A stretch of 64,000 bases of DNA from Candidatus Omnitrophota bacterium (lineage in GTDB: Bacteria; Omnitrophota; Gorgyraeia; Gygaellales; Profunditerraquicolaceae): the NCBI GenBank assembly GCA_028717245.1, contig JAQUOD010000009.1, forward strand, positions 228-64,227, given 5' to 3'. The position numbers and the translations under genes were made by a program. Below are positions 9,617 through 47,777 of this stretch, piece by piece. The notes beneath the pieces were generated by a model, which was not told the DNA's origin, ran no database searches, and saw only the letters and a program-made list of their open reading frames with translations. Every line of letters starts with the position of its first letter. Position 1 is the stretch's first letter.

Positions 9617-9696
9617 CGTTATAGCGTTATAGGGTTATAGCGTTATAGCGTTTGTCAACGCAAGTAACCCAATAACGCAAGTAACGCAATAACGAA
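9617..9696. repeat. inverted arrays of ~8-nt tandem repeats (CGTTATAG x4 / GCAAGTAAC-CAATAACG)
   Basis: intergenic between rpmF and plsX. Confidence 0.85.
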
Positions 9697-9699
9697 AAT

Positions 9700-10686
9700 A
9701 TGAAAATAGTAGTTGACGCCATGGGCGGAGATCATGCGCCCAGGGTGGTGATTGAGGGGGCGATAGCTGCGGTTAAGGAATACGGCGTGGAGATTATCCT
9801 GACCGGAAACGAGGCCCAAATAGCGCCCCTGCTTAAGAAAACAAGGTATAGAGGCAGCGCCATCACTATAGTACATACCGAGGAAGTGATCGGTATGTCT
9901 GAATCCGCGGCTACCAGCGTGCGCAGGAAGAGAAATTCTTCTATTGTCGTGGGTTTGGAATTAGTAAAAGAGGGCAAGGCAGAGGCTTTTTTCAGCGCCG
10001 GTAATACCGGGGCAGTAGTCTGTGCCGCAGCCTTAGGCTTAGGTTTATTGCCGGGCATTGAACGGCCGGGCATTGCCTTAGTTATCCCTACCTTAAAAGG
10101 CATATCCCTGGTGATAGATGTAGGCGCTAATATTGATTCTAAGCCTTCGCAATTATTACAGTACGGGATCATGTCCGACGTCTACTCGCGTTGTATATTA
10201 AATAAACCCAATCCCAGCGTAGGCCTATTAAATATCGGAGAAGAAGAAACTAAGGGAACGGAGTTTATGAAAGAGACGCACGAACTTTTTGAGAAGAGCA
10301 GGCTTAATTTCATCGGCAACGTGGAAGGCAAAGATTTATTTTCCGGTAAGAGCGATATTATTGTCTGCGACGGCTTTATAGGTAATATAGCCTTGAAGGT
10401 TTCAGAGAGCGCTGCCGAGGCCATGGGTGTTTTTTTGAAGCGCCACCTGATGAATAATCCTTTAGGGAAATTAGGTTTACTTTTATTAAGGGGCAGCCTC
10501 ATGCGTTTTAAGAAAGAAATGGATTATTCGGAATACGGCGGGGCGCCCTTATTGGGAGTCAACGGCGTAGTGATTATCGGCCATGGCCGCTCTAATACCA
10601 AGGCCATAAAGAACGCTGTTCGCGTAGCTAAGGAAGAGGTTGAGCGTCAGTTCAACGAAAAGGTCTTGGAAGCGATAAAGCCTTAA
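9700..10686 (+). CDS. plsX: phosphate acyltransferase PlsX
   Basis: MKIVVDAMGGDHAP N-terminus, 328 aa. Confidence 0.9.
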   Translation: MKIVVDAMGGDHAPRVVIEGAIAAVKEYGVEIILTGNEAQIAPLLKKTRYRGSAITIVHTEEVIGMSESAATSVRRKRNSSIVVGLELVKEGKAEAFFSAGNTGAVVCAAALGLGLLPGIERPGIALVIPTLKGISLVIDVGANIDSKPSQLLQYGIMSDVYSRCILNKPNPSVGLLNIGEEETKGTEFMKETHELFEKSRLNFIGNVEGKDLFSGKSDIIVCDGFIGNIALKVSESAAEAMGVFLKRHLMNNPLGKLGLLLLRGSLMRFKKEMDYSEYGGAPLLGVNGVVIIGHGRSNTKAIKNAVRVAKEEVERQFNEKVLEAIKP

Positions 10687-10744
10687 AAATGAACCTTTTG
10701 ACTACGCTCGGGGTTCATACTGAGCGAACGAAGTGAGTCGAAGT

Positions 10745-11722
10745 ATGAAAAAAGTAGGCATAATAGGTGTTGGGGAATATTTACCAAAGAAAGTCCTGAC
10801 CAATAAGGATTTAGAGAAGATGGTCGATACCTCTGATGAATGGATTACCACGCGCACGGGTATAAAACAGAGGCGCCTTGTTTCCAGCAGCGAAGCAGCT
10901 TCGGATTTGGCGATAAATGCGGCCAGGGGGGCGTTGAGGGATGCCAGGATAAAAGCGCAGGATTTGGATTTAATTATTATAGCCACCATTAGCCCGGATA
11001 TGCAGTTTCCTTCCACTGCTTGTTTGGTACAGGCTGCTCTAGGCGCAAAGAACGCCGCCTGTTTTGATATCTCTGCTGCCTGCGCAGGATTTATTTACGG
11101 TATCATTATCGCCCAGCAGTTTATTGCCCGCGGCAGCTATAAGAATGTTTTAGTAGTAGGCACAGAGGTTTTATCCTCCATAACCGACTGGCAGGACAGG
11201 AATACCTGTGTTTTATTCGGAGACGGCGCAGGTGCTGCTGTTCTTTCGGAAGTCAAGTCCGGCGGTATCATTTCTACTTATTTAGGCAGTGACGGCGCCT
11301 TGGCGGATTTATTAAAGCTCCCCGCAGGCGGTTCGCGTAATCCGGCTACCCATAAGACCATAGATAAAAGGCTGCACTATTTAAAAATGGAGGGCAATGA
11401 ACTCTTTAAGTTAGCAGTGAAGATTATGACCAATGCAGCACAGATCGCCTTAAAGAAAGCAGGATTAGAGTGCAAGGATATAGATTTAGTTATTCCGCAT
11501 CAGGCCAATATCCGGATTATCATGGCTATGGCCAGGAGACTGGGTCTGCCCGAAGATAGGATCTATCTGAATATAGAAAAATACGGCAATATGTCTTCTG
11601 CTTCTACTGCTACCGCGCTTTGTGAAGCGGTCAGGGGAGGCAGGATTAAAAAGGGCGATATCGTTCTTTTGGATGCTTTTGGCGCGGGTTTGGTCTGGGG
11701 CGCCTGCCTGATTAAATGGTGA
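10745..11722 (+). CDS. fabH: 3-oxoacyl-ACP synthase III
   Basis: active-site Cys in AACAGF, His and Asn in C-terminal half; start moved to MKKVGIIG. Confidence 0.9.
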   Translation: MKKVGIIGVGEYLPKKVLTNKDLEKMVDTSDEWITTRTGIKQRRLVSSSEAASDLAINAARGALRDARIKAQDLDLIIIATISPDMQFPSTACLVQAALGAKNAACFDISAACAGFIYGIIIAQQFIARGSYKNVLVVGTEVLSSITDWQDRNTCVLFGDGAGAAVLSEVKSGGIISTYLGSDGALADLLKLPAGGSRNPATHKTIDKRLHYLKMEGNELFKLAVKIMTNAAQIALKKAGLECKDIDLVIPHQANIRIIMAMARRLGLPEDRIYLNIEKYGNMSSASTATALCEAVRGGRIKKGDIVLLDAFGAGLVWGACLIKW

Positions 11723-12648
11723 TGGATAAGTCCGCTCTTTTATTTGCCGGACAGGGCGCTCAATATATCGGTATGGGAAAGGATTTATACGAATCTTTTC
11801 CTGAAAGTAAATCGGTCTTTGATAAGGCAGATGAGGTTTTGGGTTTTTCTCTTTCCCAACTCTGTTTTGAGGGGCCACAGGAAGAACTGATACGGACCCA
11901 GAATTGCCAACCCGCGATATTAACCGTGAGCGTGGCTGCATGGGAAGCCTTTAAAAATAGTGTCAAAGTGTCAGAGTGTCAAAGTGTCAGTTATGTGGCA
12001 GGTCTGAGCTTGGGCGAATATTCGGCGTTGGTAGCAGCAGAGGCAATAAGTTTTAGAGATGCCGCGTATCTGGTGAGAAAACGCGGGGAGTTTATGGAGC
12101 AAGAGGCCCAGTCCCGGGCGGGTAGTATGGCTTCTATTATAGGATTGGATATCACGGCAGTAAGAGATATCTGCCGTAAGACTAAGACAGAGTTAGCTAA
12201 TATCAATTGCCCTGGCCAAATCGTTATTTCCGGCGGTAAACCGGAAATTTCCGAAGCCCAGAGATTAGCCGAAGAAAGTGGCGCAAAAAAAGTAATCTTA
12301 TTGGAAGTAAGTGGGGCGTTCCATTCTTCTTTTATGCAGGGCGCCTCTTTAAAATTAGCCGGGGAATTGGAGAAAATTAAAATAGAGACGCCCCGGATAC
12401 CGCTGGTGAGTAATGTTACGGCTAGGCCCATGATTAATCCCGCGGAAATCAAGGATAGCTTGATTAAGCAGGTTACGGCCAGCGTCCTTTGGGAAGATTC
12501 AATGGAGTTCATTCTCTCTGAGGGTATAAATCAATTTTTTGAGTTCGGGCCAGGTAAAGTCTTAAAAGGCCTGATGCGCCGTATTGATGATAAGGCGCAG
12601 GTTGTTAATATAGAAAAGAAAGCAGATATTTTAAGTTTTAAGCCGTAA
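11719..12648 (+). CDS. fabD: malonyl CoA-ACP transacylase
   Basis: FAGQGAQ and GLSLGEYSA motifs; ATGA overlap with fabH stop. Confidence 0.9.
   Translation: MMDKSALLFAGQGAQYIGMGKDLYESFPESKSVFDKADEVLGFSLSQLCFEGPQEELIRTQNCQPAILTVSVAAWEAFKNSVKVSECQSVSYVAGLSLGEYSALVAAEAISFRDAAYLVRKRGEFMEQEAQSRAGSMASIIGLDITAVRDICRKTKTELANINCPGQIVISGGKPEISEAQRLAEESGAKKVILLEVSGAFHSSFMQGASLKLAGELEKIKIETPRIPLVSNVTARPMINPAEIKDSLIKQVTASVLWEDSMEFILSEGINQFFEFGPGKVLKGLMRRIDDKAQVVNIEKKADILSFKP
11959..11990 (+). repeat. in-frame octamer tandem repeat (AGTGTCAA/G)x4 inside fabD
   Basis: encodes SVKVSECQSVS just before GLSLGEY active site. Confidence 0.9.
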
Positions 12649-12730
12649 GTTATAAGCTTTAAGCTAAAAAATCAAAAGCACAGGGATTTTTTTAAAAAGC
12701 TTACAACTTAAAGCTTACAGCTTACAGCTG
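12641..12730. repeat. inverted arrays of TTACAGC-type heptamer repeats
   Basis: intergenic between fabD and fabG. Confidence 0.85.
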
Positions 12731-13484: not shown

Positions 13485-13487
13485 GTG

Positions 13488-13607
13488 AAGACATAAGTTA
13501 TGGAGCGTAAGCGACATAACTTATGAGTCTGAACTTATCCGCCTTCGGCGGATTTAATTCGCACCTATAACTTACTCGCACTCCGTGCTCGTAAGTTATG
13601 TGCTCAT
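13488..13607. repeat. inverted short-repeat arrays (CATAAGTTATG / CATAACTTATG) plus GC hairpin
   Basis: intergenic between fabG and acpP. Confidence 0.8.
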
Positions 13608-14039: not shown

Positions 14040-15284
14040 ATGCCAGAAAATAGAGTAGTCATTACAGGTATGGGGATAATTTCTCCGGTGGGTAATAGTG
14101 TCCCGGATTTTTGGGGGGCCGTGAAGACCGGAAAGAGCGGTGTAGGTATGCTTACGTCTTTTGATGCTACCGGCTTTGATTCGCGTATCGCCGCTGAAGT
14201 CAAGGGTTTTGACTCGGCCTTATACGGTATATCTGCTAAAGACTCAAGGCGCATGGAGAAGTTTGTGCAATACGCTATTGCTTGCGGCCATCAAGCCCTG
14301 CATGATTCCGGTATGGACTTGAATAAAGAAGACCGGCATAGAATGGGCGTTTTAATCGGCTCAGGCATAGGCGGTTTATACACCATAGAAGAGCAGCATA
14401 AGATTTATATGAATAAGGGGCCTTCCCGTTTGTCTCCGTTTCTTATACCGATGTTAATTGTTAATGAGGCCGCAGGACAGGTGGCCATCAGTTTTGGGTT
14501 AAAGGGCCCGAATTCCTGCGTGGCTACTGCCTGCGCTTCGGGAGCGCATGCCATAGGTGATGCCTACCGGATTATTCAGCGCCAAGATGCGGACGTAATG
14601 GTTTGCGGTGGGTCAGAGAGTTGCATCGTGCCTACGGGCGTAGGCGGTTTTTGTGCCTTGAGGGCGCTTTCTACCAGGAATGATGAACCAGAGAGGGCCA
14701 GCCGTCCTTTTGACTTAGAGCGCGACGGTTTTGTTATGGCTGAAGGTTGCGGCCTGGTAGTCTTGGAAAATTTAGAACACGCCAGGAAGAGAAAAGCCCA
14801 TATATATGCAGAGTTCTGCGGTTATGGCATGTCTTGTGACGCGTACCATATTACCGCGCCTGACCCCGATGGAGAGGGCGCTGCCCAGGCAATAAATATG
14901 GCGTTAAAAGACGCCAAACTTTCTCCGCAGGAGGTAAATTACATTAATGCGCACGGGACATCTACCAAGCTTAATGATAAAATCGAGACGCTGGCAATAA
15001 AGAAGGCCTTAGGCAGTTATGCCAAAAAGGTCATGGTTTCTTCTACTAAATCCATGACCGGGCATTTATTGGGAGCATCCGGCGGAGTAGAATTTGTGGT
15101 TTGCGTTTTAGCGATAAAAGATGGCGTGATACCCCCCACCATAAATTATGAACATCCTGACCCCGAATGTGACCTGGATTACGTGCCTAATACTGCCCGC
15201 GAAATAAAGGTTGAAGCCTGCCTTTCTAATTCGCTGGGTTTTGGCGGGCACAATGCTACGCTTGTAGTAAAAAGATTTAGATAA
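14040..15284 (+). CDS. fabF: 3-oxoacyl-ACP synthase II
   Basis: RVVITGMGI N-terminus, active-site Cys in ATACASG, HGTST, GHLLGASG; start chosen downstream of element C. Confidence 0.9.
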   Translation: MPENRVVITGMGIISPVGNSVPDFWGAVKTGKSGVGMLTSFDATGFDSRIAAEVKGFDSALYGISAKDSRRMEKFVQYAIACGHQALHDSGMDLNKEDRHRMGVLIGSGIGGLYTIEEQHKIYMNKGPSRLSPFLIPMLIVNEAAGQVAISFGLKGPNSCVATACASGAHAIGDAYRIIQRQDADVMVCGGSESCIVPTGVGGFCALRALSTRNDEPERASRPFDLERDGFVMAEGCGLVVLENLEHARKRKAHIYAEFCGYGMSCDAYHITAPDPDGEGAAQAINMALKDAKLSPQEVNYINAHGTSTKLNDKIETLAIKKALGSYAKKVMVSSTKSMTGHLLGASGGVEFVVCVLAIKDGVIPPTINYEHPDPECDLDYVPNTAREIKVEACLSNSLGFGGHNATLVVKRFR

Positions 15285-15383
15285 TTAAAGTTCCATAATG
15301 TTCCATAAGGTTTCATAACGTTACATAAGGTTACCTCAAAAAAAAGCAACCTTATGGAACATTAGGTAACCTTAGGCAACCTT
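15285..15383. repeat. inverted arrays of 10-nt tandem repeats (GTTCCATAAT... / AACCTTATGG...)
   Basis: intergenic between fabF and leuC. Confidence 0.85.
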
Positions 15384-16676
15384 ATGGAATTTGATAATAA
15401 AATGCCTCATACTATCGCAGAAAAAATATTGATGGCTCATACCGGCAAAAAAGACATCCAGCCGGGAGAATTCGTCGAGGCCAGAGTAGACCTGGCCTTA
15501 GGCAATGATATCACCGCGCCCTTTGCTATAGAAGAATTCAGGAAATCGGGCGCAAAAAAAGTCTTTGACAATAAAAAGATAGCGCTTGTCCCTGATCATT
15601 TTGCCCCGGCCAAAGATTTAAAGAGCGCAAATCAATGCAGGATACTGGCAGATTTTGCCCGTGAACAAAAAATAAAAAATTATTTTGAAATAGGCTGTAT
15701 GGGAATTGAACATGCCCTGTTGCCGGAGATGGGTCTGGTTTCGCCCGGGGATTTAGTCATCGGCGCGGATTCCCACACCTGTACCTACGGCGCGTTAGGC
15801 GCTTTTGCCACGGGTGTCGGCTCCACGGATTTAGCCCGCGCCTTTATAGACGGTAAATGTTGGTTCAGGGCGCCGGCTACCATAAAATTCATATATAAAG
15901 GTAAGCCAAAGCCATGGGTGGCTGGTAAAGATTTAATCCTTTATACCATAGGCCAAATCGGCGTGGACGGCGCGTTAGAGAAGGTGATGGAATTTAGCGG
16001 GCCGTTGATGGGTAAATTAAGCATGGATGATAGATTTACTATGTCCAATATGGCTATTGAGGCAGGAGGAGTTACTGGTTTGATTGAACCAGATGGAATT
16101 ACGTTAAGATATATAAAAGAAGTTTCAAAGTTTAAAAGTTTAAAAGTTCCAAAGTTAAAATTTAAAAATTTGAAATCAGATAGAGATGTGCAGTATGAAA
16201 AAATATACGAATGGGACATTTCTAAATTAGAACCGCAGGTGGCCTGTCCGCATTTACCCGGTAACGTGAAAGCTGTTTCCGGCTTGGGAAAGATAAAACT
16301 TGATCAGGTGGTGATTGGCTCCTGCACTAACGGAAGGATCTCGGACTTACGGATTGCGGCTAGGCTATTAAAAGGCAAGAAAGTAAAGGCCGGATTAAGG
16401 CTGATTATTATTCCCGCAACCCAAAAGATTTATCTTCAGGCGGTAAAAGAAGGCCTGGCGGAAATATTTGTGGAAGCAGGCGGCGTCTTTTCTACCCCTA
16501 CCTGCGGCCCGTGCCTCGGCGGGCATATGGGGATACTTACAGAAGGGGAGACATGCCTGGCCACTACCAACAGGAATTTCATCGGCAGGATGGGCAGCCC
16601 CAAGTCATTCGTTTATCTGGCTAGCCCGGCAGTAGCCGCAGCTTCGGCAATAAAAGGGAGAATATCTCATCCTTAA
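15384..16676 (+). CDS. leuC: 3-isopropylmalate dehydratase large subunit (short, archaeal-type LeuC)
   Basis: aconitase-family Cys ligands (CTNGR, TCGPCLG), 430 aa. Confidence 0.85.
   Translation: MEFDNKMPHTIAEKILMAHTGKKDIQPGEFVEARVDLALGNDITAPFAIEEFRKSGAKKVFDNKKIALVPDHFAPAKDLKSANQCRILADFAREQKIKNYFEIGCMGIEHALLPEMGLVSPGDLVIGADSHTCTYGALGAFATGVGSTDLARAFIDGKCWFRAPATIKFIYKGKPKPWVAGKDLILYTIGQIGVDGALEKVMEFSGPLMGKLSMDDRFTMSNMAIEAGGVTGLIEPDGITLRYIKEVSKFKSLKVPKLKFKNLKSDRDVQYEKIYEWDISKLEPQVACPHLPGNVKAVSGLGKIKLDQVVIGSCTNGRISDLRIAARLLKGKKVKAGLRLIIIPATQKIYLQAVKEGLAEIFVEAGGVFSTPTCGPCLGGHMGILTEGETCLATTNRNFIGRMGSPKSFVYLASPAVAAASAIKGRISHP
16121..16176 (+). repeat. in-frame octamer tandem repeat (AGTTTMAA)x7 inside leuC
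   Basis: encodes VSKFKSLKVPKLKFKNLKS. Confidence 0.9.
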
Positions 16677-16685
16677 AGAAGCATT

Positions 16686-17240
16686 ATGATTATAAAAGGT
16701 AAAGTTCATAAATTCGGAAATGATGTAAATACCGACGACATCATCGCTGCCAAATACCTGGTTTCTACCGATGAAAAAGAGCTGGGCAGGCATTGTATGG
16801 AAAATATCGCGCCTGAATTTTGCAGTAAAGTAAATAAAGGCGATATCATCGTAGCCGGGAAAAACTTTGGTTGCGGTTCGTCGCGGGAACACGCCCCCCG
16901 GGCATTAAAAGGCTGCGGGATTGCCGCGGTGATTGCCCGTAGTTTTGCCGGAATATTTTTCAGGAATTCCATAAATGTAGGTTTGCCGTTTTTGCAATTA
17001 GATGAGACAGAAAAAATAAATGACGGCGATTCGCTTGAAATAGATTTGGCAGGTGGTATAATAAAAAATCTGAGCCAAAATCAAACTTATAAAACCACGC
17101 CCTTCCCCGGGTTTTTACAGGCGATTATTAAGCGGGGCGGTTTAATGAATTATATAAAAAACCACAGCCGTAGGGACTGTCCCCGTAGGTATCGAACCCG
17201 ATTAGAAATCAAGGGGACTGTCCCTACTAAACGAGATTAG
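16686..17240 (+). CDS. leuD: 3-isopropylmalate dehydratase small subunit; C-terminal ~25 codons read through repeated element D
   Basis: aconitase swivel domain GCGSSREHA motif; stop lies inside element D. Confidence 0.8.
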
Positions 17241-18318: not shown

Positions 18319-18420
18319 CACAGCAGTAGGGACTGTCCCCGCAGATATCGAACCCAATTAGAAATCAAGGGGACTGTCCCTACTAAACGAGATTAGTCAG
18401 GATTGTAAGATGAGCCAAAG
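18319..18420 (+). repeat. repeated element family D copy 2
   Basis: carries the SD, ATG and first three codons (MSQ) of asd. Confidence 0.85.
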
Positions 18421-19432: not shown

Positions 19433-19454
19433 CCCTAAAATGAATCTGTTGCTT

Positions 19455-19690
19455 TTCTCGCTTGTAAGGTAGTGGGGCCTGTCAAGGCTATTTTCTCACA
19501 GCACCGCTCGATTTTCCCCACCGAGGAAAATCTCGTCCTTCGGCAAGCTCAGGACGAGCCCTGAGCGAAGTCGAATGGGCTCGCTTGAAGTTTCTGCTCG
19601 CTCTCACTGACTACGTATTAGCGGGTGAGCCCTGGCCGCTCGCATAAACTACATGCTGTTCGAAAACAGCCTTGCCACCCACTAAACCCT
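19455..19690 (-). repeat. family A element copy 2 (reverse orientation, full length)
   Basis: reverse complement aligns with 3155-3315 over its whole length. Confidence 0.8.
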
Positions 19691-19740
19691 TACGTTAGCT
19701 AGAAACCGCCAGAGTCATTTGTAAAGTAATAGATTCATTT

Positions 19741-19910
19741 TTAGCGGGTGACGAGGCATGTTTTGAGCAGCATCTTGAAAATTCGAGCGGGCACGGTTCG
19801 TTTCGTCATTTAGTTGTTTCCGAGAGCGAGAATTTTCACCGAAGTGCAGCGAGCCACGCTGGGGCGAGCAAACGGTGCAGCGAAAAATATGCCTCGGCAG
19901 GACCCGCTAA
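19741..19910 (+). repeat. family A element copy 3
   Basis: termini TTAGCGGGTGACGAGGCAT...ATGCCTCGGCAGGACCCGCTAA with compensatory stem changes. Confidence 0.8.
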
Positions 19911-19930
19911 AAGAGTTATCTATATAATAT

Positions 19931-20707
19931 ATGCGTAATATCAAATTAACTATAGAGTACGCCGGCACTAAATACGCCGGATGGCAGGTCCAGGGCAGAA
20001 GGCACAGGACTATCCAGGGAACGTTAGAAAAAGCCCTCCAGAAAATACTTCGGGAAAAAATACATTTAATCGGTTCAGGCAGGACTGATGCCGGGGTGCA
20101 TGCCTTTGGACAAGTAGCTAACTTTAAGACCGATTCCGGCGTGCCTGTTTGGAAAATACAAAAGGCCTTAAATGCGAACTTGCCAGGCGATATTGTAATA
20201 ACTAGCGTAGAGGACGTAAATTTTGATTTTCATAGCCGCTTTGACGCCAAATCAAAAGTATACCGTTACACTGTTTTAAACAGGGCTTATCCCCCGGCAA
20301 TATTGAAAGATAAAGTTTATTTTTATCCTTACCCTTTAGATGTGGAGTTAATGCGTAAAGAAACAAAGTCTCTTTTAGGCCGGCATGATTTTAAATCATT
20401 CTGTGCCAGCTCAAGCAGCGTTAAAGACACCATACGCACAATAAAAAATATAACTATTAAAAAATCGGCTTACAGCTTACAGCTTACAGTTTACAGTTTA
20501 AAAAAGCCCTCTTTGATTACCATTGAGATAGAGGCAGACGGCTTTCTCTACAATATGGTCAGGAATATTACAGGTACGCTGCTTGAGATAGGCAGGGGTA
20601 AACTTCCCGCAGGCAGCCTTAAGAGGATATTACTGGCAAAAAACAGAAGGCTCGCCGGCCCTACGGCCCCTGCCCAAGGATTATGCCTACTTGAGGTTAA
20701 GTATTGA
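19931..20707 (+). CDS. truA: tRNA pseudouridine(38-40) synthase TruA
   Basis: catalytic GSGRTDAGVHA motif. Confidence 0.85.
   Translation: MRNIKLTIEYAGTKYAGWQVQGRRHRTIQGTLEKALQKILREKIHLIGSGRTDAGVHAFGQVANFKTDSGVPVWKIQKALNANLPGDIVITSVEDVNFDFHSRFDAKSKVYRYTVLNRAYPPAILKDKVYFYPYPLDVELMRKETKSLLGRHDFKSFCASSSSVKDTIRTIKNITIKKSAYSLQLTVYSLKKPSLITIEIEADGFLYNMVRNITGTLLEIGRGKLPAGSLKRILLAKNRRLAGPTAPAQGLCLLEVKY
20469..20500 (+). repeat. in-frame heptamer tandem repeat (TTACAGC)x4-5 inside truA
   Basis: encodes AYSLQLTVYSL. Confidence 0.9.
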
Positions 20708-21591: not shown

Positions 21592-21637
21592 GTTATGAGT
21601 TAGAAAGTTAAAAAGTTCAAATGTTCAAATGTGAAAG

Positions 21638-21664
21638 TCCCGCTGGAAGAGCGGGATTTTTTAT
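21638..21664 (+). terminator. intrinsic terminator TCCCGCTGGAAGAGCGGGA + T6
   Basis: 7-bp GC stem with U-tract after rpsI. Confidence 0.7.
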
Positions 21665-21679
21665 TGATGGTCTTATCGT

Positions 21680-21750
21680 TTTTCTCGCTTACGAGGTAGC
21701 GGGTCCTGTCCCGCCATGAATCGTGGCGGGCCACCCGCTAAATTCTTACG
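21680..21750 (-). repeat. family A element copy 4 (short form, reverse orientation)
   Basis: termini AGCGGGTGG / GACAGGACCCGCT joined by a small hairpin. Confidence 0.7.
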
Positions 21751-21865
21751 TCAGCTCGAAAAACGCCAAGCCCATTTTGTTTAGTGATATCTCGACGAGA
21801 AAATGCTTGACTACGCTGAGTTTTTATCTTAATATGAGCGTATAAAAAAATAAGAGGAGAGGCGC

Positions 21866-22888
21866 ATGGTAAGGGTAGGGATTGTAGGGGCGACGGGTTA
21901 TGCGGGCGAGGAATTAATCGGTATACTTTTAAGGCACTCGCAGGTAAGAATAACGAGCGTATCTGCCAAAATCGATAAGCCCGAGGGTATAGAAAAGATA
22001 TTCCCTAAATTCAAAAATAAGATTTCCTTGGTTTGCAAAGAGCCGGATATAAAAGAGATCGTCGCTGAATGCGACCTGGTATTTTTGGCATTACCCCATA
22101 CCGTCTCCATGGAGATTGCGCCTAAATTATTGGGCGCCGGTAAAAAGGTAATTGATTTAAGCGCCGATTACAGGTTAAAGAATACCGCAACCTATACGCA
22201 GTTCTATAAGGCAAAACATAAGGATAAGGTAAGCCTCGTTAAGGCAGTATACGGCCTGCCGGAACTGTATAGGGCTAAAATCAAGAATGCCCAGCTTATT
22301 GCTAATCCCGGATGTTATCCGACGGCAGCGATATTATCCCTGGCGCCGCTGGTAGCTTTTAATCTGGCCGATTCAGGTTCTATAATTATCGATGCCAAGT
22401 CCGGGGTAACCGGCGCCGGTAAAAAGGTAGCAGAGAGTTTTCTCTTTTCAGAAATCAACGGGGATTTCAAGGCCTATAAGGTCAATGTGCATCAGCATAT
22501 GCCGGAGATTAATCAGGAGCTGTCAAAGCTGGCGGCTAAAGGGATAAAAGTAATCTTTGTGCCGCATTTGTTGCCTCTGAACAGGGGGATATTAGAGACG
22601 ATATATGTTAAAAAAGGGCAAAGGGCAAAGGGCAAAGGGCAAAAGTTAATAAGTTTATACAAAAAATTCTATAAGAAAGAGCCGTTTGTGAGAATAAAAG
22701 ACGAGGGCGATTTTCCAAGAATAAAAGACGTGGTGGGGACGAATTTCTGCGATATCGGGATTAAAGAAAGCGCAGATTCCATAATTATCATTTCTGCCAT
22801 AGATAATTTATTGAAAGGCGCTTCGGGCCAGGCAGTGCAGAATATGAATATTATGTATAAGTTTCCGGAATACAGCGCGTTAATATGA
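21866..22888 (+). CDS. argC: N-acetyl-gamma-glutamyl-phosphate reductase
   Basis: VGIVGATGYAG N-terminus, active-site Cys in NPGCYPT. Confidence 0.9.
   Translation: MVRVGIVGATGYAGEELIGILLRHSQVRITSVSAKIDKPEGIEKIFPKFKNKISLVCKEPDIKEIVAECDLVFLALPHTVSMEIAPKLLGAGKKVIDLSADYRLKNTATYTQFYKAKHKDKVSLVKAVYGLPELYRAKIKNAQLIANPGCYPTAAILSLAPLVAFNLADSGSIIIDAKSGVTGAGKKVAESFLFSEINGDFKAYKVNVHQHMPEINQELSKLAAKGIKVIFVPHLLPLNRGILETIYVKKGQRAKGKGQKLISLYKKFYKKEPFVRIKDEGDFPRIKDVVGTNFCDIGIKESADSIIIISAIDNLLKGASGQAVQNMNIMYKFPEYSALI
22611..22645 (+). repeat. in-frame heptamer tandem repeat (AAAGGGC)x4.5 inside argC
   Basis: encodes KGQRAKGKGQK. Confidence 0.9.
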
Positions 22889-24890: not shown

Positions 24891-24925
24891 TTTAAATGTT
24901 AGAATGTTAAAATGTTTAAAAGTTT

Positions 24926-26170: not shown

Positions 26171-26274
26171 TCTAATTGCGCTAGCGGGATCCCGCTTTAG
26201 TATAAGAAGGTCAAGCGGGAAAATGTTTGAATGTTGTAATGTTAGAATGTTTTAATGTTTAAAAGAAGGATGCT

Positions 26275-30427: not shown

Positions 30428-30441
30428 TAAGGATAAACTAA

Positions 30442-36984: not shown

Positions 36985-37074
36985 TTGGTTCTTTGAGTTA
37001 CTTGAGTTCATTGAGTTGTTTGAGTTAGAAACTCAATAACTCTATAAACTCAACAAACTCTATAAACTAAATAA
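36985..37074. repeat. inverted arrays of 9-nt tandem repeats (GAGTTNNTT x4 / AAACTCNAT x5)
   Basis: intergenic between the dapL-like gene and folK. Confidence 0.85.
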
Positions 37075-37473
37075 ATGGTAGTTTGTTTTCTGGGGGTAGG
37101 TTCTAATTTAGGAAACAGAAGGAAAAATATCGAGAAGGCATTGGATTATTTGGTAAAGACCAAGGGTATAAAAATAGAAAAAATCTCGCGGATTTATGAA
37201 ACCGAACCTGTGGGCGCAGTCCCTCAGGGAAAATTCTTGAACGCTGCCCTAAAAATCAGGACTTCGCTTGCACCTCTGCCGCTTCTTAAAACCCTTAAAA
37301 AAATAGAAAAGGCCTTAGGCCGCAAGAAGGGTATCCGTTTTGGCCCGCGCCCCATAGATTTAGATATCCTGCTTTACGCAGACAAGGCGATAAAGACAAA
37401 GGAACTTATGATCCCGCATCCTGAGATGTTCAGGAGGGAATTTGTCCTGAAACCCTTAAGAGACCTGTTATGA
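37075..37473 (+). CDS. folK: 2-amino-4-hydroxy-6-hydroxymethyldihydropteridine pyrophosphokinase
   Basis: LGSNLGNR, EPVG and DLDIL motifs. Confidence 0.8.
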   Translation: MVVCFLGVGSNLGNRRKNIEKALDYLVKTKGIKIEKISRIYETEPVGAVPQGKFLNAALKIRTSLAPLPLLKTLKKIEKALGRKKGIRFGPRPIDLDILLYADKAIKTKELMIPHPEMFRREFVLKPLRDLL

Positions 37474-38330: not shown

Positions 38331-38375
38331 AAATTACGAGTTACCAATTACGAATTACCGATTACGGATTTTAGC

Positions 38376-39194: not shown

Positions 39195-39300
39195 TAGATA
39201 AGTTAGTGTCAAGGTGCCAAGTATCAATGTGTCAAAGGAAAAGCAATAAAAGATTTTATACTTTGATACTCTGACACTATGATACTTTGATACATAATCG
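39195..39300. repeat. inverted arrays of ~8-9-nt repeats (GTGTCAAAG... / CTTTGATAC...)
   Basis: intergenic after the nadX-like gene. Confidence 0.85.
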
Positions 39301-39647: not shown

Positions 39648-42491
39648 ATGGAAGACGCTATTATTATCAAAGGCGCTAAAGAGCACAACCTTAAAAATAT
39701 AAACCTAAGATTACCCCGGAATAAACTTATCGTTATTACGGGCCTCTCCGGTTCGGGTAAATCCAGCCTGGCCTTTGATACTATTTATGCCGAGGGCCAG
39801 AGGCGTTACGTAGAGAGCCTCTCCAGCTATGCCCGCCAGTTTTTAGAGCAACTGCAGAAACCCGACGTAGAATATATCGAAGGATTATCCCCTGCCATAG
39901 CTATTGAACAGAGGACTGCCGGAGGCAATCCCCGTTCTACCGTAGGGACCCAGACTGAAATCTACGACTATTTGAGGATCCTTTTTGCGCGTATCGGTAA
40001 GGTCTTGTGTTATCAGTGCGGACAACCCATAGAGAGGCAGAGCGCACAGGAGATAGTAGAGAGAGTTATGGCCTCATCACAGGGTTCTGATATCCAGATA
40101 TTGGCGCCGTTAGTCAGAGGCAGAAAAGGAGAATATAAAGACATATTTGCCCAGATTCAGAAAGCCGGTTTTGTCAGGGCGCGGGTAGACGGCGAAATTT
40201 ACGATTTACCTCAAAAGATTAAACTCAAGAAATACAATATCCATAATATCGAAGTAGTGGTAGACAGGCTTATCATCAAACCCGAAGTAAAAAACAGGCT
40301 CACCGATTCCATAGAAACAGCGCTTAAGGTAGGTAAAGGCATTGCGATAGTTAGTCAGTTAGCTAGTCCGCCGGTTGGCCGGTTGAACCGACAAACCGGC
40401 GAACCGACAAACCGGCAAACTGATATAGTTTTTAGCGAACAATATGCCTGTACCAAATGCGGCATCAGTTATCCTGAGGTTGAGCCGCGGATGTTTTCTT
40501 TTAATTCACCCTATGGCGCCTGCCCTGCCTGCCATGGCTTAGGCACTAAGTTAGAATTTGACCCGGATTTAATCATCCCTGATAGGAATAAATCCATAAA
40601 CGAAGGCGCCATCGAGGCCTGGAAGAGGGGCGGCAGGGGCTATATTCTTTATTACCGCTGGCTCATCCGAGAACTTTCATTTACAATGGGTTTTGATTTG
40701 GATACGCCGTTTAAGAAATTAGGCAAGCATGTGCAGAAGGCCATACTTTACGGGGCTGATATAAATGCCGGCGGAAAACCTTTTGAGGGGGTAATCCCTA
40801 ACCTGGAAAGATTATTCCATCAGACCGAAAGCGATTACCTGAAAGAAGAGATATCTAAGTTTATGTCTAGCCTCCCCTGTCCGGTTTGCCGGGGCGCAAG
40901 GTTAAAAAAAGAAAGCCTGGCCGTTACGATTAGCGGCAAGAATATCTGGGAAGTCACGGCGATGTCCATTAAAGAAGCGCGCCAATTTTTTGGAACGTTG
41001 GAATTGACACAAAGGCAGAAGATAATCGCGCATCAGGCTTTAAAAGAGATAATCCGGAAATTGCAATTCTGTATTGATGTGGGTTTAGAATATATCACTT
41101 TAGACAGAAAGAGCGCCACTCTCTCCGGCGGCGAAGCGCAGCGTATCCGTTTGGCTACGCAGGTAGGCTCGGCCTTAGTAGGTGTATTATATATATTGGA
41201 TGAGCCCAGTATCGGCCTGCACCAGAGGGATAACGCCAGATTAATTTCTACCCTGAAGACCTTAAGGGACCTGGGTAATACCCTGATTATCGTAGAACAC
41301 GATGAAGCTACGATACTGGCAGCTGACTATATTGTAGATTTAGGCCCGGGCGCAGGCAGGCACGGCGGAGAAATAGTTTTCTCAGGGGACAGGGAGGATT
41401 TATTAAAACGTTCAGATTCTCTTACTGCAAAATATCTTAGAGGTGAACTCAGGGCGTGTAAAATTATACAGAGGAGGCCCTGGCAGAAAAGGAAGTTCTT
41501 GGAGATTAAGGGTGCCAGGGAGCACAACCTGAAAAATATAGATGTAAAATTCCCCTTAGGTGTCTTTATCTGCGTTACGGGGGTATCCGGTTCGGGTAAG
41601 TCTACTCTCATCGATGAGATATTGTATCGCAGCCTCGCACAAAAATTATATAAATCCAGGGAAAAACCCGGGCTGCATCAGAAGATTACGGGCGTAGAAT
41701 ACGTTGACAAGGTTATTGTCGTTGATCAGTCTCCTATCGGCAGGACCCCGCGCTCAAATCCGGCCACCTATGCCGGAGTCTTTAGCCATATCCGGGATAT
41801 ATTCAGCAGGCTCCCCGAAGCGCGCATTAAGGGGTATAAACCGGGCAGGTTTTCTTTTAATGTTAAAGGCGGCCGTTGCGAGGCCTGCGCAGGAGACGGC
41901 ATAAAAAAGATTGAGATGCATTTTCTCCCCGATGTCTATGTAAAATGCGATGTCTGTAAAGGCAGGCGTTTTAATGAGGCGACCCTGGGGGTGAAATATA
42001 AGGGTAAATCTATTGCCGAAGTCTTGGATATGACCGTGGAGGAGGCGCTGGATTTATTCGCCAATATCCCAAAGATAAAGGGCATCTTGAGCTATCTTTT
42101 TGAAGTGGGCTTAGGTTATATACAACTTGGCCAGAGCGCAACCACTTTATCGGGCGGTGAAGCGCAGCGGGTTAAACTTGCCTCAGAACTTAGCAAGCGT
42201 TCGACAGGCAAAACCCTTTATCTTTTGGATGAGCCTACTACCGGATTACACTTTGCTGACGTAGAAAAACTTCTTTCTGTCCTGCAGAGATTAGTGGATA
42301 AAGGCAACACTATTTGCGTGATTGAGCATAATCTGGAGGTAATAAAGTGCGCTGATTACATCATTGACTTGGGCCCTGAAGGCGGAGAAAAAGGAGGCGA
42401 GGTCGTAGCCAGCGGCAGCCCCGAGGAATTGCTTAATAACCACAAGTCATACACGGCGCAATTTTTGAGAAAAGTATTGAAGAAAGAATAA
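39648..42491 (+). CDS. uvrA: excinuclease ABC subunit A
   Basis: two ABC ATPase modules ([18 protein letters not shown]), zinc-finger Cys clusters, LSGGE signatures. Confidence 0.9.
40370..40420 (+). repeat. in-frame octamer repeat/palindrome (CCGGTTGR x2 / ACCGRCRA x4) inside uvrA
   Basis: encodes [17 protein letters not shown]. Confidence 0.9.
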
Positions 42492-42512: not shown

Positions 42513-45011
42513 ATGAATAAACTCAAAAATCAATTTTTTAAATCTCTTAGAATTCTTTTACCTTTTCTTTTTATTTTCGCTTACAGCTTACAGCTTACAG
42601 CTTACAGCTTACATGCCCAGGATTCCTCCAAGGAAGAAGAGGCGCTCTTTGTCGCCGAGAAGGCCTTTGAAGACGGCTTCTATGACGTAGCCTTGGGGCT
42701 CTTTGAGCGTTTCTTAAAGAATTACCCTGCTTCTTCCAGGGCAGCAGAAGCGAACCTTTTAATCGGGCAGTGCTATTATCACCAGAATAGGTTCTTAGAT
42801 GCCCTAGCCAAGTTTGAAGGGCTCCTTACTTGGCCTCCCGCGCAGAATATCAAGGACGAAGTCCTCTATTGGATCGCCGAAGTGCATTTTAAAGGCAATA
42901 ATTTTACCAAGGCAGGCCAGTATTACAGGATGATAATTGAGGGTTACCCGAAATCTTCTTATTCCGTTTATGCCTATTATTCCTTAGGCTGGTGTTTGTT
43001 CCAGGAATCCGATTTTACCGAGGCCGTGAAATACTTTAAAATCACACAGGAGAAATTCCCCAAGGAGCCTCAGGCGCAGGATTCCGCGTTTAAAATAGCG
43101 GAGTGCCTCTATAATCTGAAGGATTACACCGGCACCAAAGACAGGCTGCAATCTTATATGAAGGCCTACCCTAAGGATAGCGCGCGCACCGCTTATATTT
43201 ATTTTTATCTGGCCGAAGCAGATTATTATTTGAACAATTTCAGTGAGGCCATTGATGAATATTCCAAGGCCATAGCCAATACTAATGACGAAAGAATACA
43301 GGCGCTCTCTAAGTTAGGCATAGGCTGGGCCTACCTGAAATCAAAAAAATATAAGGAAGCCCAGGATACGTTTTCAGGCATCGTACCCGATAAACTGGAG
43401 AAAAAGGGGCAGGATATCCTGTTATTAGGCAAAGCGCTTTTATCCGCAGAGACTAAGAGATTTACCCAGGCCAAAGATACGTATGATGAATTATTAAAGG
43501 TATCTTCTGACCCGCTTATTTTAATTCAGGGTTATCTGGGCAAGGCTGAAACGCTTTATAATATTTCCGAATATAAAGAGGCAATAGGCGTATACGAAGA
43601 GGCATTAGACAAGATATCGGCATCCATACCCCAGGAGAGCATTGACAAGCTGCATTACGGCCTGGCCTGGGCATTTTTAAAAGAGGGGGAATTCAAAGAA
43701 GCAATAGACGAATTCCAGAAGATTGCCAGGCACACTGAAGATAAGATGATTAAGGTAGCCGCGCTCTGCCAGATAGGCGATGCCTACCAGGACTCGGGAG
43801 AATACGTCAAGGCAATTGAGGCATACGATACCATATTAAAGGATTATCCGGATACGTTATATAACGATTACGTGCAATATCAGTTAGGCAACAGTTTACT
43901 GAAGACCTATAATTACGACGGAGCGATCATGGCTTTCCAGAGCCTGAAAAACAATTTCCCTAATTCGAAATTATCCGATGAGGCAGCTTATGCCTTGGGG
44001 ATAACTTATTTTCAAAAACAGGACTATAACTCCAGCAAGGAAATCTTCGAAAATTTTAAGGATGAATTTAAAGAGAGCGCCTTAAGGCCCCAAGGCATGT
44101 ATCTTTTAGGGAGCAGCCTCTATAATTTAGGTGAATTTGCGCAGGCTATCGAGGTCTTTAAAGATATCATCAGGAACTACAACCAGGATACGGAGTCAGT
44201 CCAGAAGGCCGAATACGAGATAGCCGATTGCTACTACCAGCTTGGGAATGAAAAAGAGGCCATGGACAGGTTTAAGGTATTGCGCTCCAAATATCCCGAT
44301 TCCCGGCTCACCCCGGAAGTGATGTGGTGGCTGGGGGAGTACTATTACAGGCATGATGACCTGGGCCTGGCGCGCCGGTATTTCTCCTCGCTAATACAGG
44401 ACTTTCCCAAGAGTAATTTAATCCCCGATGCCTACTATATTTTAGGTTCTACTTACGCAGAGGAAGGCAAGTATGAAGAAGCCATAGCAAATTTCAAGAA
44501 GGCAGCAGAATTAGGTAAATCCGACCTCACCGGCACATCCGGTATTGCCATAGCGGATATATATGCCAAACAAGGCAAAACCGATTTGGCCCTGAAGATG
44601 TATAAGGACGTAGCCAGGGAATACGCTAATCTCGCAACTTTGATTTATCCGAAGATCGCAGGCCTCTACCGTAAGTCAGGTAATTATAATGAAGCAATAA
44701 ATTTTTATAACCAGAGCCTGGATGTAGTCCCGGCGAGAGAAATGGCGGATATCCAATTTAAGATAGCAGAGACTAAAGAGGCGCAGGGTGAATACAGCGA
44801 GGCTATCGAAGAGTACTTGAAAGTTACCTACCTTTATGCGGAAAATAACAACTTAGCGGTAAAATCGCTTCTAAGGATAGCCGCGATTTATGAAGATAAA
44901 GAGAATTTTAAAGAAGCGGTTAATATTTACAAAAGAATCCGGGCCATGGATGTAGAAGAGGCAAAATACGCCCAAGAGAGGATGGACTGGATAAAGGCGC
45001 ACGCAAAATAA
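42513..45011 (+). CDS. secreted tetratricopeptide-repeat protein (832 aa)
   Basis: signal peptide followed by many TPR-like A/Y/L repeats. Confidence 0.7.
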   Translation: MNKLKNQFFKSLRILLPFLFIFAYSLQLTAYSLHAQDSSKEEEALFVAEKAFEDGFYDVALGLFERFLKNYPASSRAAEANLLIGQCYYHQNRFLDALAKFEGLLTWPPAQNIKDEVLYWIAEVHFKGNNFTKAGQYYRMIIEGYPKSSYSVYAYYSLGWCLFQESDFTEAVKYFKITQEKFPKEPQAQDSAFKIAECLYNLKDYTGTKDRLQSYMKAYPKDSARTAYIYFYLAEADYYLNNFSEAIDEYSKAIANTNDERIQALSKLGIGWAYLKSKKYKEAQDTFSGIVPDKLEKKGQDILLLGKALLSAETKRFTQAKDTYDELLKVSSDPLILIQGYLGKAETLYNISEYKEAIGVYEEALDKISASIPQESIDKLHYGLAWAFLKEGEFKEAIDEFQKIARHTEDKMIKVAALCQIGDAYQDSGEYVKAIEAYDTILKDYPDTLYNDYVQYQLGNSLLKTYNYDGAIMAFQSLKNNFPNSKLSDEAAYALGITYFQKQDYNSSKEIFENFKDEFKESALRPQGMYLLGSSLYNLGEFAQAIEVFKDIIRNYNQDTESVQKAEYEIADCYYQLGNEKEAMDRFKVLRSKYPDSRLTPEVMWWLGEYYYRHDDLGLARRYFSSLIQDFPKSNLIPDAYYILGSTYAEEGKYEEAIANFKKAAELGKSDLTGTSGIAIADIYAKQGKTDLALKMYKDVAREYANLATLIYPKIAGLYRKSGNYNEAINFYNQSLDVVPAREMADIQFKIAETKEAQGEYSEAIEEYLKVTYLYAENNNLAVKSLLRIAAIYEDKENFKEAVNIYKRIRAMDVEEAKYAQERMDWIKAHAK
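42580..42612 (+). repeat. in-frame heptamer repeat (TTACAGC)x4.5 in the signal peptide of the TPR protein
   Basis: encodes AYSLQLTAYSLHA. Confidence 0.9.
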
Positions 45012-45100
45012 TTGTGTCAAAGTGTCAGTGTATCAAAGTGTCAAAGAAGAAACTTTGATACTTGATACCTTGATACTTTGATACAACCATCGCTATATTA
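45012..45100. repeat. inverted arrays of 8-9-nt repeats (GTGTCAAAG / CTTTGATAC)
   Basis: same repeat unit as at 39195-39300. Confidence 0.85.
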
Positions 45101-45744: not shown

Positions 45745-45755
45745 GGAGATTAAAT

Positions 45756-46789: not shown

Positions 46790-47009
46790 CCTTGATTTTT
46801 CTTTAGCCGTATCATTATATATCTTTTTTGTCTTGAATATAACTTTGCTTATTTGGTTATTCAGCAGGAAGCAAAAGGACAAGGATTTATCTTTAGACCA
46901 TAAGTTTATCTGGTTTTGTTCGGTTTGCACCTATACCTACGTTAACACTAAAGAAGACCTGATTTCTCTTTGTCCCCGTTGCGGCAGTTATAATAAAAAA
47001 AGTAGTTGA
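46782..47009 (+). CDS. small membrane protein with C-terminal zinc ribbon (CSVC...CPRC)
   Basis: ORF features only. Confidence 0.3.
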   Translation: MINLDFSLAVSLYIFFVLNITLLIWLFSRKQKDKDLSLDHKFIWFCSVCTYTYVNTKEDLISLCPRCGSYNKKSS

Positions 47010-47053
47010 CACCGGCGTCATTTACCTTACAATAAATAGAGAGGACAAAACAT

Positions 47054-47260
47054 ATGATTACTGAAATAGGCATAGTCGCAGGCGATATCTGGCATTATTT
47101 AGACCAGCACGGAGAAGCGAAACTTTCGGACTTAGCCAGGGGTATTGATAAGCCCAGGGATAATATTTTGATGAGCTTAGGCTGGCTTGCCCGCGAAGGC
47201 CATGTGATCGTCCAGCAATTTGGGCACGATTACAAGGTAAGTCTAAAAAATAAGTTTTAA
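47054..47260 (+). CDS. small winged-helix-like protein
   Basis: 68 aa; weak. Confidence 0.3.
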   Translation: MITEIGIVAGDIWHYLDQHGEAKLSDLARGIDKPRDNILMSLGWLAREGHVIVQQFGHDYKVSLKNKF

Positions 47261-47267
47261 ACTTAGA

Positions 47268-47642
47268 ATGGGTAAAAAAAGAGGAGTAGTTTTATTCCTG
47301 GTTTTAGCTACTGTTTTAGTAGCGGTAATTTTAGCTAATATTATCCTGAGCTTTGTTTTAAGCCAATACAAGCTTACCCACCATCAGACCAGCCGGATAC
47401 GGGCTTACTATGCTGCTTTAGCAGGGATGAATCTGGCTAGGGAAAATATAAGATTGGGAACTTCGGGTTGGGTACCTGCCGCAGGCAGCGTTACTAAAAC
47501 CTTATGCAGTTCTGGTTGTGATGTAATTGATAATGATATACCCTATAAGGTCTCAATAACTATAGGAGCTCCGGGTACTTCCATTGACAGGATAGGCCGT
47601 AAAATCAGCATCAAGACTACTTACACCTACGCTGCCCCTTAA
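47268..47642 (+). CDS. PilX N-terminal-domain-like pilus assembly protein
   Basis: N-terminal TM then RAYYAALAGMNLA motif typical of PilX_N. Confidence 0.45.
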   Translation: MGKKRGVVLFLVLATVLVAVILANIILSFVLSQYKLTHHQTSRIRAYYAALAGMNLARENIRLGTSGWVPAAGSVTKTLCSSGCDVIDNDIPYKVSITIGAPGTSIDRIGRKISIKTTYTYAAP

Positions 47643-47777
47643 TTCCTTCCTAAAAATCTATTATAATCTAAGTAAATCTATTATAATCTAAGTAAATAAA
47701 TTATTATCTTATTAGGCCTTAATTTAAGACTAATTTTAAACATAAGTAAGTTTGAGTAAGTCTATATAAAAAAACAC

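Follow-up and report, generated by a model that had tools for sequence, protein, structure and literature searches.

Inverted arrays of 7-10-nt tandem repeats in Omnitrophota operons as candidate palindromic repeat elements

Several neighbouring genes in a stretch of 64,000 nucleotides from a Candidatus Omnitrophota bacterium (contig JAQUOD010000009.1, assembly GCA_028717245.1; here called the window) are separated by inverted arrays, in which a run of 7-10-nt tandem repeats is followed by a run of the reverse complement. The question raised by this locus is whether such arrays punctuate operons, as a preliminary description of the DNA proposed, or are elements of another kind. The window contains about 70 genes, all but one on the + strand, and has a GC content of about 44%. 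The best reading of the comparisons below is that the arrays behave as selfish insertions with a fast turnover and not as terminators. With a probability of roughly 0.55 they are lineage-specific small palindromic repeat elements, non-coding and without an open reading frame (ORF), which resemble intervening sequences (IVS) or miniature inverted-repeat transposable elements (MITE) and are related to cassettes of the IVS type. No description of inverted short-repeat arrays in Omnitrophota was found in the searchable literature.

The comparison is based on 80 loci retrieved with a FabD query and referred to by L numbers. Thirty-two of them, from Omnitrophota or Omnitrophota-like genomes, constitute together with the window an Omnitrophota set of 524 kb, and the other 48 loci (about 800 kb from Paenibacillus, Dehalococcoidia and others with the same operon) were used as controls. 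An array was counted when Tandem Repeats Finder (TRF) reported a tandem repeat with a period of 6-11 and at least 2.8 copies. There are 140 arrays in the Omnitrophota set (2.67 per 10 kb) and 24 in the controls (0.30 per 10 kb; Fisher p = 1e-33), and adjacent reverse-complementary array pairs were found 27 times in the former and never in the latter. Period 7 accounts for 90 of the 140 arrays, and perfect period-7 runs of at least three copies are equally confined to the Omnitrophota set (24 vs 0). Spacers make up only 8% of the DNA yet hold 83 arrays, a density 16.5-fold higher than in coding sequence (CDS; p = 2e-53), and 48 of these 83 arrays belong to an inverted pair compared with 4 of the 53 arrays that lie wholly within CDS. 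The preliminary description was thus right in that periodically mismatched hairpins in stop-to-start spacers are pervasive and specific to a lineage.

The distribution within this lineage is patchy. Eight Omnitrophota loci have no arrays, while L007 has 12.6 per 10 kb. The unclassified bacterium L032, with a FabD identity of only 49%, has 9.6 per 10 kb and shows very clean inverted arrays with both gene orientations. When the window FabD was compared with one genome per species, the top 30 matches were all Candidatus Omnitrophota metagenome-assembled genomes with 49-75% identity, and for the window LeuC the other relatives are all at most 85% identical.

TRF gives 62 rows for the window, with periods mainly of 7-10 nt, and six spacers hold arrays with two arms. 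Their minimum free energy (dG, ViennaRNA) was compared with 200 dinucleotide shuffles, and all six fold far beyond these, with z-scores from -3.7 to -11.4. The array in the rpmF/plsX spacer (9617-9694; dG -30.2, z -7.0) has about 4.5 copies of CGTTATAG in the 5' arm and about 4.4 copies of the AACGCAAGT/TAACG type in the 3' arm, separated by a loop of 4 nt; it starts 5 nt past the rpmF stop and ends 5 nt short of the plsX ATG. Between fabD and fabG (12630-12729; dG -28.2, z -3.7), heptamers of the TTTAAGC type and a 3' arm of AGCTTAC heptamers enclose a loop of 32 nt, the fabD stop codon is contained in the 5' arm, and the Shine-Dalgarno sequence GAGGAG is found 3' of the 3' arm. The fabF/leuC array (15286-15384; dG -35.4, z -6.3) is built up by 10-nt units, 4.7 copies of TAAGGTTCCA and 3.9 of GCAACCTTAG, and starts 1 nt past the fabF stop. 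Units of 9 nt (TTGAGTTAA x3.9 and AAACTCAAT x5.3) form the array between an aminotransferase gene and folK (36987-37075; dG -29.5, z -4.9), which ends at the folK ATG. The last two arrays have a family of 8-nt units in common. One is located between an aspartate-dehydrogenase-like gene and an 80-aa ORF (39202-39296; dG -30.0, z -5.1), with arms of AGTGTCA(A) and TTTGATAC; the other, between a TPR protein gene and exbB (tolQ) (45012-45086; dG -41.6, z -11.4), has arms of GTGTCAAA and TTTGATAC, starts 1 nt past the stop codon and is followed by the Shine-Dalgarno sequence AAGGAGG.

The hairpins start between -16 and +10 nt relative to the upstream stop and end 0-27 nt ahead of the next start, so that the hairpin fills the spacer. 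Each arm is about 30-35 nt long and consists of about 4-5 imperfect copies of a 7-10-nt unit, and the window hairpins have 28-38 pairs each. Copy number according to TRF peaks at 4.5 with a steep fall beyond, perfect arrays within CDS have 4.4-5.0 copies, and the modal number of exact units per arm is 4. The unit combines a constant core with variable positions: the best two adjacent positions hold a mismatch share of 0.70, compared with 0.58 expected (Wilcoxon p = 2e-5), a modest clustering that is individually significant in only 6 of 59 arrays. Pairing with the opposite arm is seen for 79% of the invariant unit positions and for 59% of the variable ones, which shows that the stems are truly periodically mismatched.

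At least eight unit families occur within the 64 kb, including GTGTCAAAG, GCTTACA, TTGAGTTA, TAAGGTTCCA and GCGTTAT, and the copies have units, not whole sequences, in common. The earlier remark that some units are shared between loci was correct. The unit GTGTCAAA is present at 39205, at 45014 and within fabD at 11959, and the GCTTACA/TTACAGC unit at 12698, 20468, 32373, 42579 and 60431, with the complement at 12630 and 28888.

Other parts of the preliminary description need to be modified. It listed 13 sites and took each of them to be an inverted array with a long periodic hairpin. Tandem 7-10-nt arrays are found at nearly all 13 by TRF and by reading of the sequence, but only six sites have two arms. 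Those at 21596, 24891, 26222, 28891, 38331 and 47643 are one-armed, with z-scores between -2.0 and +0.9, and the site at 13488-13607 is not a tandem array but three ordinary hairpins of another conserved family. Nor do at least 15 intergenic regions have this structure; of the 29 window spacers that measure 30 nt or more, 12 contain TRF arrays.

Do the hairpins that remain act as punctuation? They might be terminators or attenuators that lack a U-tract, or 3' stem-loops that stabilise the upstream mRNA in the manner of the repetitive extragenic palindromes (REP) of E. coli. The strong folding and the close position to the stop codon are in agreement with this, as is the presence of a long hairpin of some kind at the fabF/leuC junction in 13 of 27 genomes. 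Furthermore, 23 of 25 array hairpins have a G-rich 5' arm. This polarity is more pronounced than among the intergenic hairpins of the controls (Fisher p = 0.003), but it is not confined to arrays, since the controls show the same trend (140 to 80). However, no T-run was found within 12 nt 3' of any of the six window hairpins. The array stems share with intrinsic (Rho-independent) terminators the position just past the stop codon and the G-rich 5' arm, but they are AT-rich, long, periodically mismatched and without a U-tract, and they are located inside operons and CDS.

Nor are the positions those of transcription-unit ends. Hairpins separate rpmF from plsX, fabD from fabG and fabF from leuC, arrays are also found within the arg cluster, and two inverted arrays lie within CDS, where they are translated in frame: one in uvrA of the window (40370-40420; GCCGGTTG x2 followed by AACCGACA/AACCGGCx x4.4; z -3.1) and one in leuC of L011 (L011 9624-9708). 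In L006, L008, L011 and L025 a hairpin of AGCGnnn units separates leuC from leuD, which encode the two subunits of one enzyme and overlap in many other genomes; it starts at the stop codon (TAGCG...) and ends with ...CGCTA, followed by the ATG.

Presence is also sporadic when orthologous junctions are compared. Among 21 such junctions fabF/leuC (7 of 27 genomes), leuC/leuD (5 of 25) and rpmF/plsX (4 of 29) have the highest rates, and some arrays occur at every junction. At fabF/leuC the hairpins of nine genomes are built up by nine different units, with different units in L003, L006, L008, L011, L019, L022, L024 and L025, and five genomes have nearly no spacer there. Neither strand folds consistently better by minimum free energy and there is no clear excess of G-U pairs on the sense strand (45 vs 33), and because a consistent sense-strand advantage is missing, structure at the RNA level cannot be distinguished from structure at the DNA level. 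Half of the arrays listed in the preliminary description lack a second arm altogether. Inverted arrays as classical terminators are not supported by these results, and functional punctuation in the wider sense is quite unlikely. The observation that classical terminators are rare in the window was roughly right, in that terminator-like matches are near shuffle expectation (33 vs 23.8; 26 vs 22) and the clear cases are few: a hairpin with a T-run just past 21636 and another at 4356-4395. An Rfam scan of the window at gathering thresholds gave a tRNA-Ala as the sole match. The idea that the arms provide an "all-frame stop" was rejected; stop triplets number 87 in 5' arms and 57 in 3' arms, but per pair the difference is 15 vs 7 (p = 0.13).

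The suggested connection between spacer arrays and arrays within genes was confirmed, both by unit families in common and by the whole inverted pairs in uvrA and L011 leuC. Direct arrays encode variable loops of FabD, TruA, LeuC and RecG, and orthologues have different arrays or none at these places. All the following arrays are on the + strand. In recG a perfect heptamer array (6798-6830; TCAGGTG x4.7) encodes part of a variable loop, and in fabD the array AGTGTCAA x3.9 (11959-11990), of the same unit family as the hairpins at 39202 and 45012, is found in a variable loop where orthologues have other heptamer arrays at the equivalent place. The 8-mer array AAGTTTAA x7.2 in leuC (16120-16175) lies in an insertion-prone loop. 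GCTTACA x4.7 (20468-20500) is contained in a 13-aa insertion in truA, a site at which orthologues have no insert or different arrays. Perfect arrays are also found in argC (22613-22643; AAAGGGC x4.4), near the 3' end of dapF (32373-32407; TTACAGC x5.0), in the hydrophobic N-terminal segment of the TPR protein (42579-42613; GCTTACA x5.0) and in another hydrophobic N-terminal segment (60431-60462; CTTACAG x4.6). To judge from their sequence, the last two segments look like signal peptides. The two arrays encode the identical peptide AYSLQLTAYSL, which ends the hydrophobic segments before apparent cleavage sites.

A (TTACGAG)5 array in the gene for a DAP/ornithine decarboxylase (lysA-like; 31414-31470, + strand) is split by a 21-nt palindrome (CTGCCTGTCCGGCAKGCAGG plus one base; 31432-31452). 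The same palindrome is found exactly inside a heptamer array in fabD of L009 (10260-10280) and is missing in L013, which is 90% identical to L009. When it is excised from the window copy, (TTACGAG)5 is restored. It has the appearance of a very small mobile element with arrays as its target.

The closest architectural relatives of the window hairpins would be IVS-type cassettes, in which inverted heptamer arrays surround a PF05635 gene, with the hairpins of the window as the type without ORF. The AGCGnnn units, where nnn is only TAT, TTT, GAT or TAG, were seen in five different species, with several junctions occupied per genome. L011 and L025 have an identical 31-nt arm, while the flanking leuC and leuD genes have a DNA identity of only 72-74%. 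In L025 the arms of the leuC/leuD hairpin are 345 nt apart and surround an ORF of 116 amino acids (L025 14681-15096) that matches PF05635, "23S rRNA-intervening sequence protein" (E = 7e-39), with a weaker match to the bAvd-like family. The leuC/leuD hairpins of L006, L008 and L011 are versions of the L025 element without the ORF.

A metagenome scan with the L025 protein gave 80 loci (L090-L169) with 69-100% identity, 69 of which have enough flanking sequence. At least two exact AGCGnnn units were found within 100 nt upstream of the PF05635 gene in 55 of these 69 loci and at least two nnnCGCT units downstream in 63. Both are present in 54 of 69 loci compared with 2 of 199 control windows. The orientation of the flanking arrays is essentially fixed, the 3' array mostly starts 9 nt ahead of the end of the stop codon, and the duplex formed by the two flanks has a median energy of -42.6 kcal/mol. 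The loci represent at least 22 unrelated flanking-gene contexts. A PF05635 ORF in the loop is thus found in L025 and in these 54 AGCGnnn loci, and in no array of the window. A homologue search with the protein gave relatives of at least 72% identity among the matches listed, and no description of PF05635 genes flanked by heptamer arrays was found in the searchable literature. Many PF05635 homologues are located on very short contigs, as expected of multi-copy elements.

A further possibility is that each unit is bound by one subunit of an oligomeric nucleic-acid-binding protein and that the inverted layout is secondary. Candidates would be the PF05635/bAvd-like protein itself or a protein of the S1, Csp or CsrA type, as proposed for TAACTGA repeats. 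The invariant core with variable positions, the clustering of array size around 4-5 units and the AGCGnnn arrays on both sides of a gene for a bAvd-like protein fit this idea, and one-armed arrays are located directly upstream of starts without a Shine-Dalgarno sequence, as in PMC4679880. But one sequence-specific protein cannot read the many unrelated units of a genome, and the one-armed arrays show no composition bias on the sense strand (14 vs 12), which makes this explanation very unlikely. An unlikely extension of the insertion-element reading is that an oligomer of the PF05635 (bAvd-like) protein recognises its own flanking units, at about one subunit per unit, and promotes spread or excision at the RNA level, with the hairpins without ORF as non-autonomous partners; the subunit number would agree with the 4 exact units (about 4.5 according to TRF) that are most common in an arm. 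If true, the system of PF05635 and arrays would supply the "intervening-sequence proteins", which have long lacked an explanation, with a function, and it would represent a novel type of element, mobile or excised from RNA, whose place is within operons.

Turnover of the arrays can be followed between close relatives. L084 and L085, which come from two samples, have an identity of 99.97% over 12.4 kb, and the sole structural difference is in the rpmF/plsX spacer, where L084 has a heptamer hairpin array and L085 a GGGACTGTCCC hairpin element. Two more contigs of the same population begin exactly at plsX. Palindromic elements that are exchanged as cassettes would account for this difference. The main rival explanation is that the arrays are purely simple-sequence repeats formed in situ: a slippage bias of the lineage would expand 7-10-mers, template switching would copy them to the other arm, and nothing would be mobile. 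Heptamers are the most abundant class of long simple-sequence repeats (LSSR) of many prokaryotes (Mrazek 2007, via PMC4679880), and the arrays are restricted to weakly constrained sequence. Arrays within CDS of L009, L013 and L021, which are 86-90% identical, differ by indels of 21 nt (3 x 7) and 15 nt, that is by whole units, and one hairpin in L013 equals a simple 8-bp hairpin in L021 with three extra 9-nt units in each arm. These differences imply that local slippage probably contributes as well. As the whole explanation it is somewhat unlikely, because unit families, and even the order in which their variants follow, are repeated at loci that are unrelated and in species whose DNA identity is about 72%, the copy number is not open-ended but has a ceiling near 4.5-5, a whole cassette is swapped between the near-identical strains L084 and L085, and the AGCGnnn family is tied to a dispersed PF05635 gene.

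The unit-sized indels and the L013 hairpin weigh against a reading as insertion elements, and so do some further observations. In principle, the swap between L084 and L085 might have arisen in the assembly, as an artefact at a repeat. Apart from that whole-cassette swap, there are no array indels among five contigs with about 99.85-99.98% identity (5.8-12.4 kb); since the arrays are stable among these near-identical contigs, they do not show the hypervariable copy number of contingency loci. No target-site duplication is recognisable when filled and empty junctions are compared, a conserved terminal motif was not found, and there is no transposase among the approximately 30 window proteins scanned against Pfam. 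A search with the PF05635 hidden Markov model in the window and the fab-region loci gave a match in L025 only, and L025 is likewise the only locus with an ORF-bearing array pair (gap of 100-900 nt) in the window and L001-L089. With no PF05635 gene in the window, the link to this gene depends on one unit family, AGCGnnn, that the window lacks. The extension from this family to the window hairpins would follow from the shared architecture, phylum and junctions and not from sequence, and the window units may derive from cassettes that carried the ORF.

Insertion elements of this kind would accumulate where insertion is tolerated, which is mostly in stop-to-start spacers, while one-armed or in-frame versions would end up in surface loops and in N-terminal segments similar to signal peptides. 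They would be gained, lost and replaced as cassettes rather than conserved as regulatory sites. When transcribed, the arms might pair into a long, periodically mismatched stem, so that the insert is looped out and the upstream stop comes to lie beside the downstream start. Insertion inside operons is probably tolerated because the stem brings the stop next to the start. RNase III may cleave this stem, in analogy to what is known of rRNA intervening sequences.

Some known repeat systems resemble the arrays in part. REP, BIME and REPIN sequences and MITE-like palindromes are likewise short, imperfect, numerous and lineage-specific, and are found in spacers of co-directional genes where they are transcribed in operons. 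However, REPs comprise one or a few sequences in nearly identical copies, which have a conserved GTAG end and are accompanied by a cognate RAYT transposase, whereas the arms described here are internally periodic and belong to many unit families, and no RAYT was seen in the window, which was not fully scanned. An identity with REP/REPIN was rejected, since near-identical copies with a conserved 5' tetranucleotide were not found among the at least eight unit families in 64 kb. With regard to MITEs, inverted arms are present, no target-site duplication is recognisable, and the only relative with an ORF encodes PF05635, which is not a known transposase.

The palindromic elements of Rickettsia (RPE) are 100-150 bp long and not built up from short tandem units. 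They are reportedly found both between genes and in frame in conserved proteins, at permissive sites (said to be described by Ogata et al. 2000). The arrays have in common with RPE that palindromic repeats are both intergenic and in frame, but there is no sequence relationship.

The 23S rRNA IVS of Leptospira and Coxiella have an ORF of the PF05635/S23p type between terminal inverted repeats, with a stem of about 28 bp that is cut by RNase III (PMC4990558). Their sporadic distribution suggests horizontal transfer, and they are regarded as selfish (PMC4990558). The AGCGnnn cassettes share exactly this layout, with a PF05635 ORF between inverted arms and a stem of about 28-35 nt, and the arms of about 30-35 nt and 28-38 pairs in the window hairpins agree with the long terminal stem of IVS (about 25-30 bp). 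In contrast to IVS, the elements described here are located in spacers and CDS of protein-coding genes and not in a helix of 23S rRNA, the inverted repeats are tandem heptamer arrays, and the ORF is missing in most copies, among them all those of the window, either by loss or because it was never present.

Like LSSR, the short tandem repeats (STRR) of cyanobacteria and the TAACTGA repeats of Beggiatoaceae, the arrays are tandem heptamers with a strong enrichment in few lineages, mostly intergenic, often upstream of starts and in some cases within ORFs (PMC4679880). They agree with LSSR also in having 5-11-nt units beyond chance with a predominance of heptamers (90 of 140). The TAACTGA repeats are nearly always direct; of 170 sets a single one was found to be inverted (PMC4679880). 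These systems consist of direct arrays of one or a few fixed heptamers, whereas 48 of the 83 intergenic arrays described here are inverted and the unit families are many.

Omnitrophota is an uncultured and widespread phylum with compact and strongly co-directional genomes, and periodic palindromes constitute a sizeable share of the spacer DNA in the regions examined. The arrays insert peptides into conserved enzymes, which has consequences for gene calling and for the alignment of proteins. Metagenome assemblies are broken or misled by them, and they should not be annotated as terminators. They also connect three subjects that have so far been dealt with apart from each other, namely heptamer simple-sequence repeats, REP/MITE-like palindromes and the rRNA intervening sequences that carry enigmatic PF05635 ORFs. 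With PF05635 genes tied to the arrays in at least 22 contexts, there is a concrete handle on the function of IVS proteins and on the movement of IVS-type elements.

The one-armed arrays in window spacers are all on the + strand. A C-free 8-mer array of GTTTGAAT without a hairpin extends across the recG stop and the rsmD start (7888-7914). The 8-mer array AGTTAAAA/GTTCAAAT 3' of rpsI (21598-21632; z +0.9) is followed by the classical terminator mentioned above, and the 8-mer array GTTTAAAT occupies the entire argB/argD spacer up to the ATG (24890-24926; z -0.3), with no Shine-Dalgarno sequence. In the argD/argF spacer (26222-26260; AATGTTnn) the variation is confined to two adjacent positions (p = 0.01). 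Heptamers are found in the argG/argH spacer (28888-28919; TAAGCCG/TAAGCTG, the complement of the GCTTACA family; z +0.7) and between panC and the aspartate-dehydrogenase-like gene (38332-38370; AATTACG/AATTACC; z +0.3), and the repeat at 47654-47709 is a direct repeat of a 20-nt unit (AAATCTATTATAATCTAAGT x2.8) without hairpin (z +0.3). The C-free 8-mers of the GTTTGAAT/AATGTTTG type (at 7888, 16120, 21598, 24890 and 26222) are one-armed only and on the sense strand only. Two of these arrays abut a start codon without a Shine-Dalgarno sequence, which resembles the TAACTGA repeats of Beggiatoaceae.

Other dispersed elements were seen alongside the arrays. The element with three hairpins in the fabG/acpP spacer (13485-13597; CATAAGTTATGGAGC...GAACTTATCC...; dG -44.9, z -7.4) is not an array and had no match in Rfam. 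It is also present in L084, a species about 80% related, at fabG/acpP and in two other spacers (8150-8336, 14951-15215 and 15649-15847), and could be a structured RNA or a MITE. Palindromes of the TAGGGACTGTCCCC type form a dispersed hairpin family with 71 matches in 15 loci, nine of them in L084, and are found in the window at 17171-17226 and 18319-18409. One copy is located within the 3' end of leuD, and a member of the family replaces the heptamer hairpin at rpmF/plsX in L085. Elements of about 150-250 nt with the mutually complementary ends TAGCGGGTGGCTTGG and CAGGACCCGCTAA occur in both orientations and in many Omnitrophota loci, and in the window at 3156-3315, 19433-19930, 21592-21865 and 30284-30441. 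A large palindrome at 61867-62043 (dG -69.6, z -9.5), beyond the range of the preliminary description, has repeat units of 15-23 nt arranged about a GTACCTGTCCC/GGGACAGGTAC core and represents the inverted-array design with longer units. In L025 the leuB/asd spacer (g17254/g18410) contains an inserted small ORF that by sequence inspection is nucleotidyltransferase-like (MNT-like) and looks selfish.

The gene order of the window, obtained from Pfam scans and annotated relatives, is batD, recG, rsmD, coaD, yceD and rpmF, followed by plsX, fabH, fabD, fabG, acpP and fabF; leuC, leuD, leuB, asd and truA, then rplM and rpsI; argC, argJ, argB, argD and argF, then argG and argH; and lysA, dapF, dapA and dapB, then folK, panC, uvrA and exbBD. 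The FabD active-site motif is GLSLGE in the window (11716-12648) and its orthologues in these Omnitrophota, compared with GHSLGE in the homologues of Paenibacillus and Dehalococcoidia. At 55449-57234 a unit of 447 nt is repeated four times in tandem, each copy corresponding to an ORF of 144 amino acids whose consensus appears from reading of the sequence to have an N-terminus similar to type IV pilins. A separate ORF of 141 amino acids within the arg cluster (27257-27682) has a match to the N_methyl motif.

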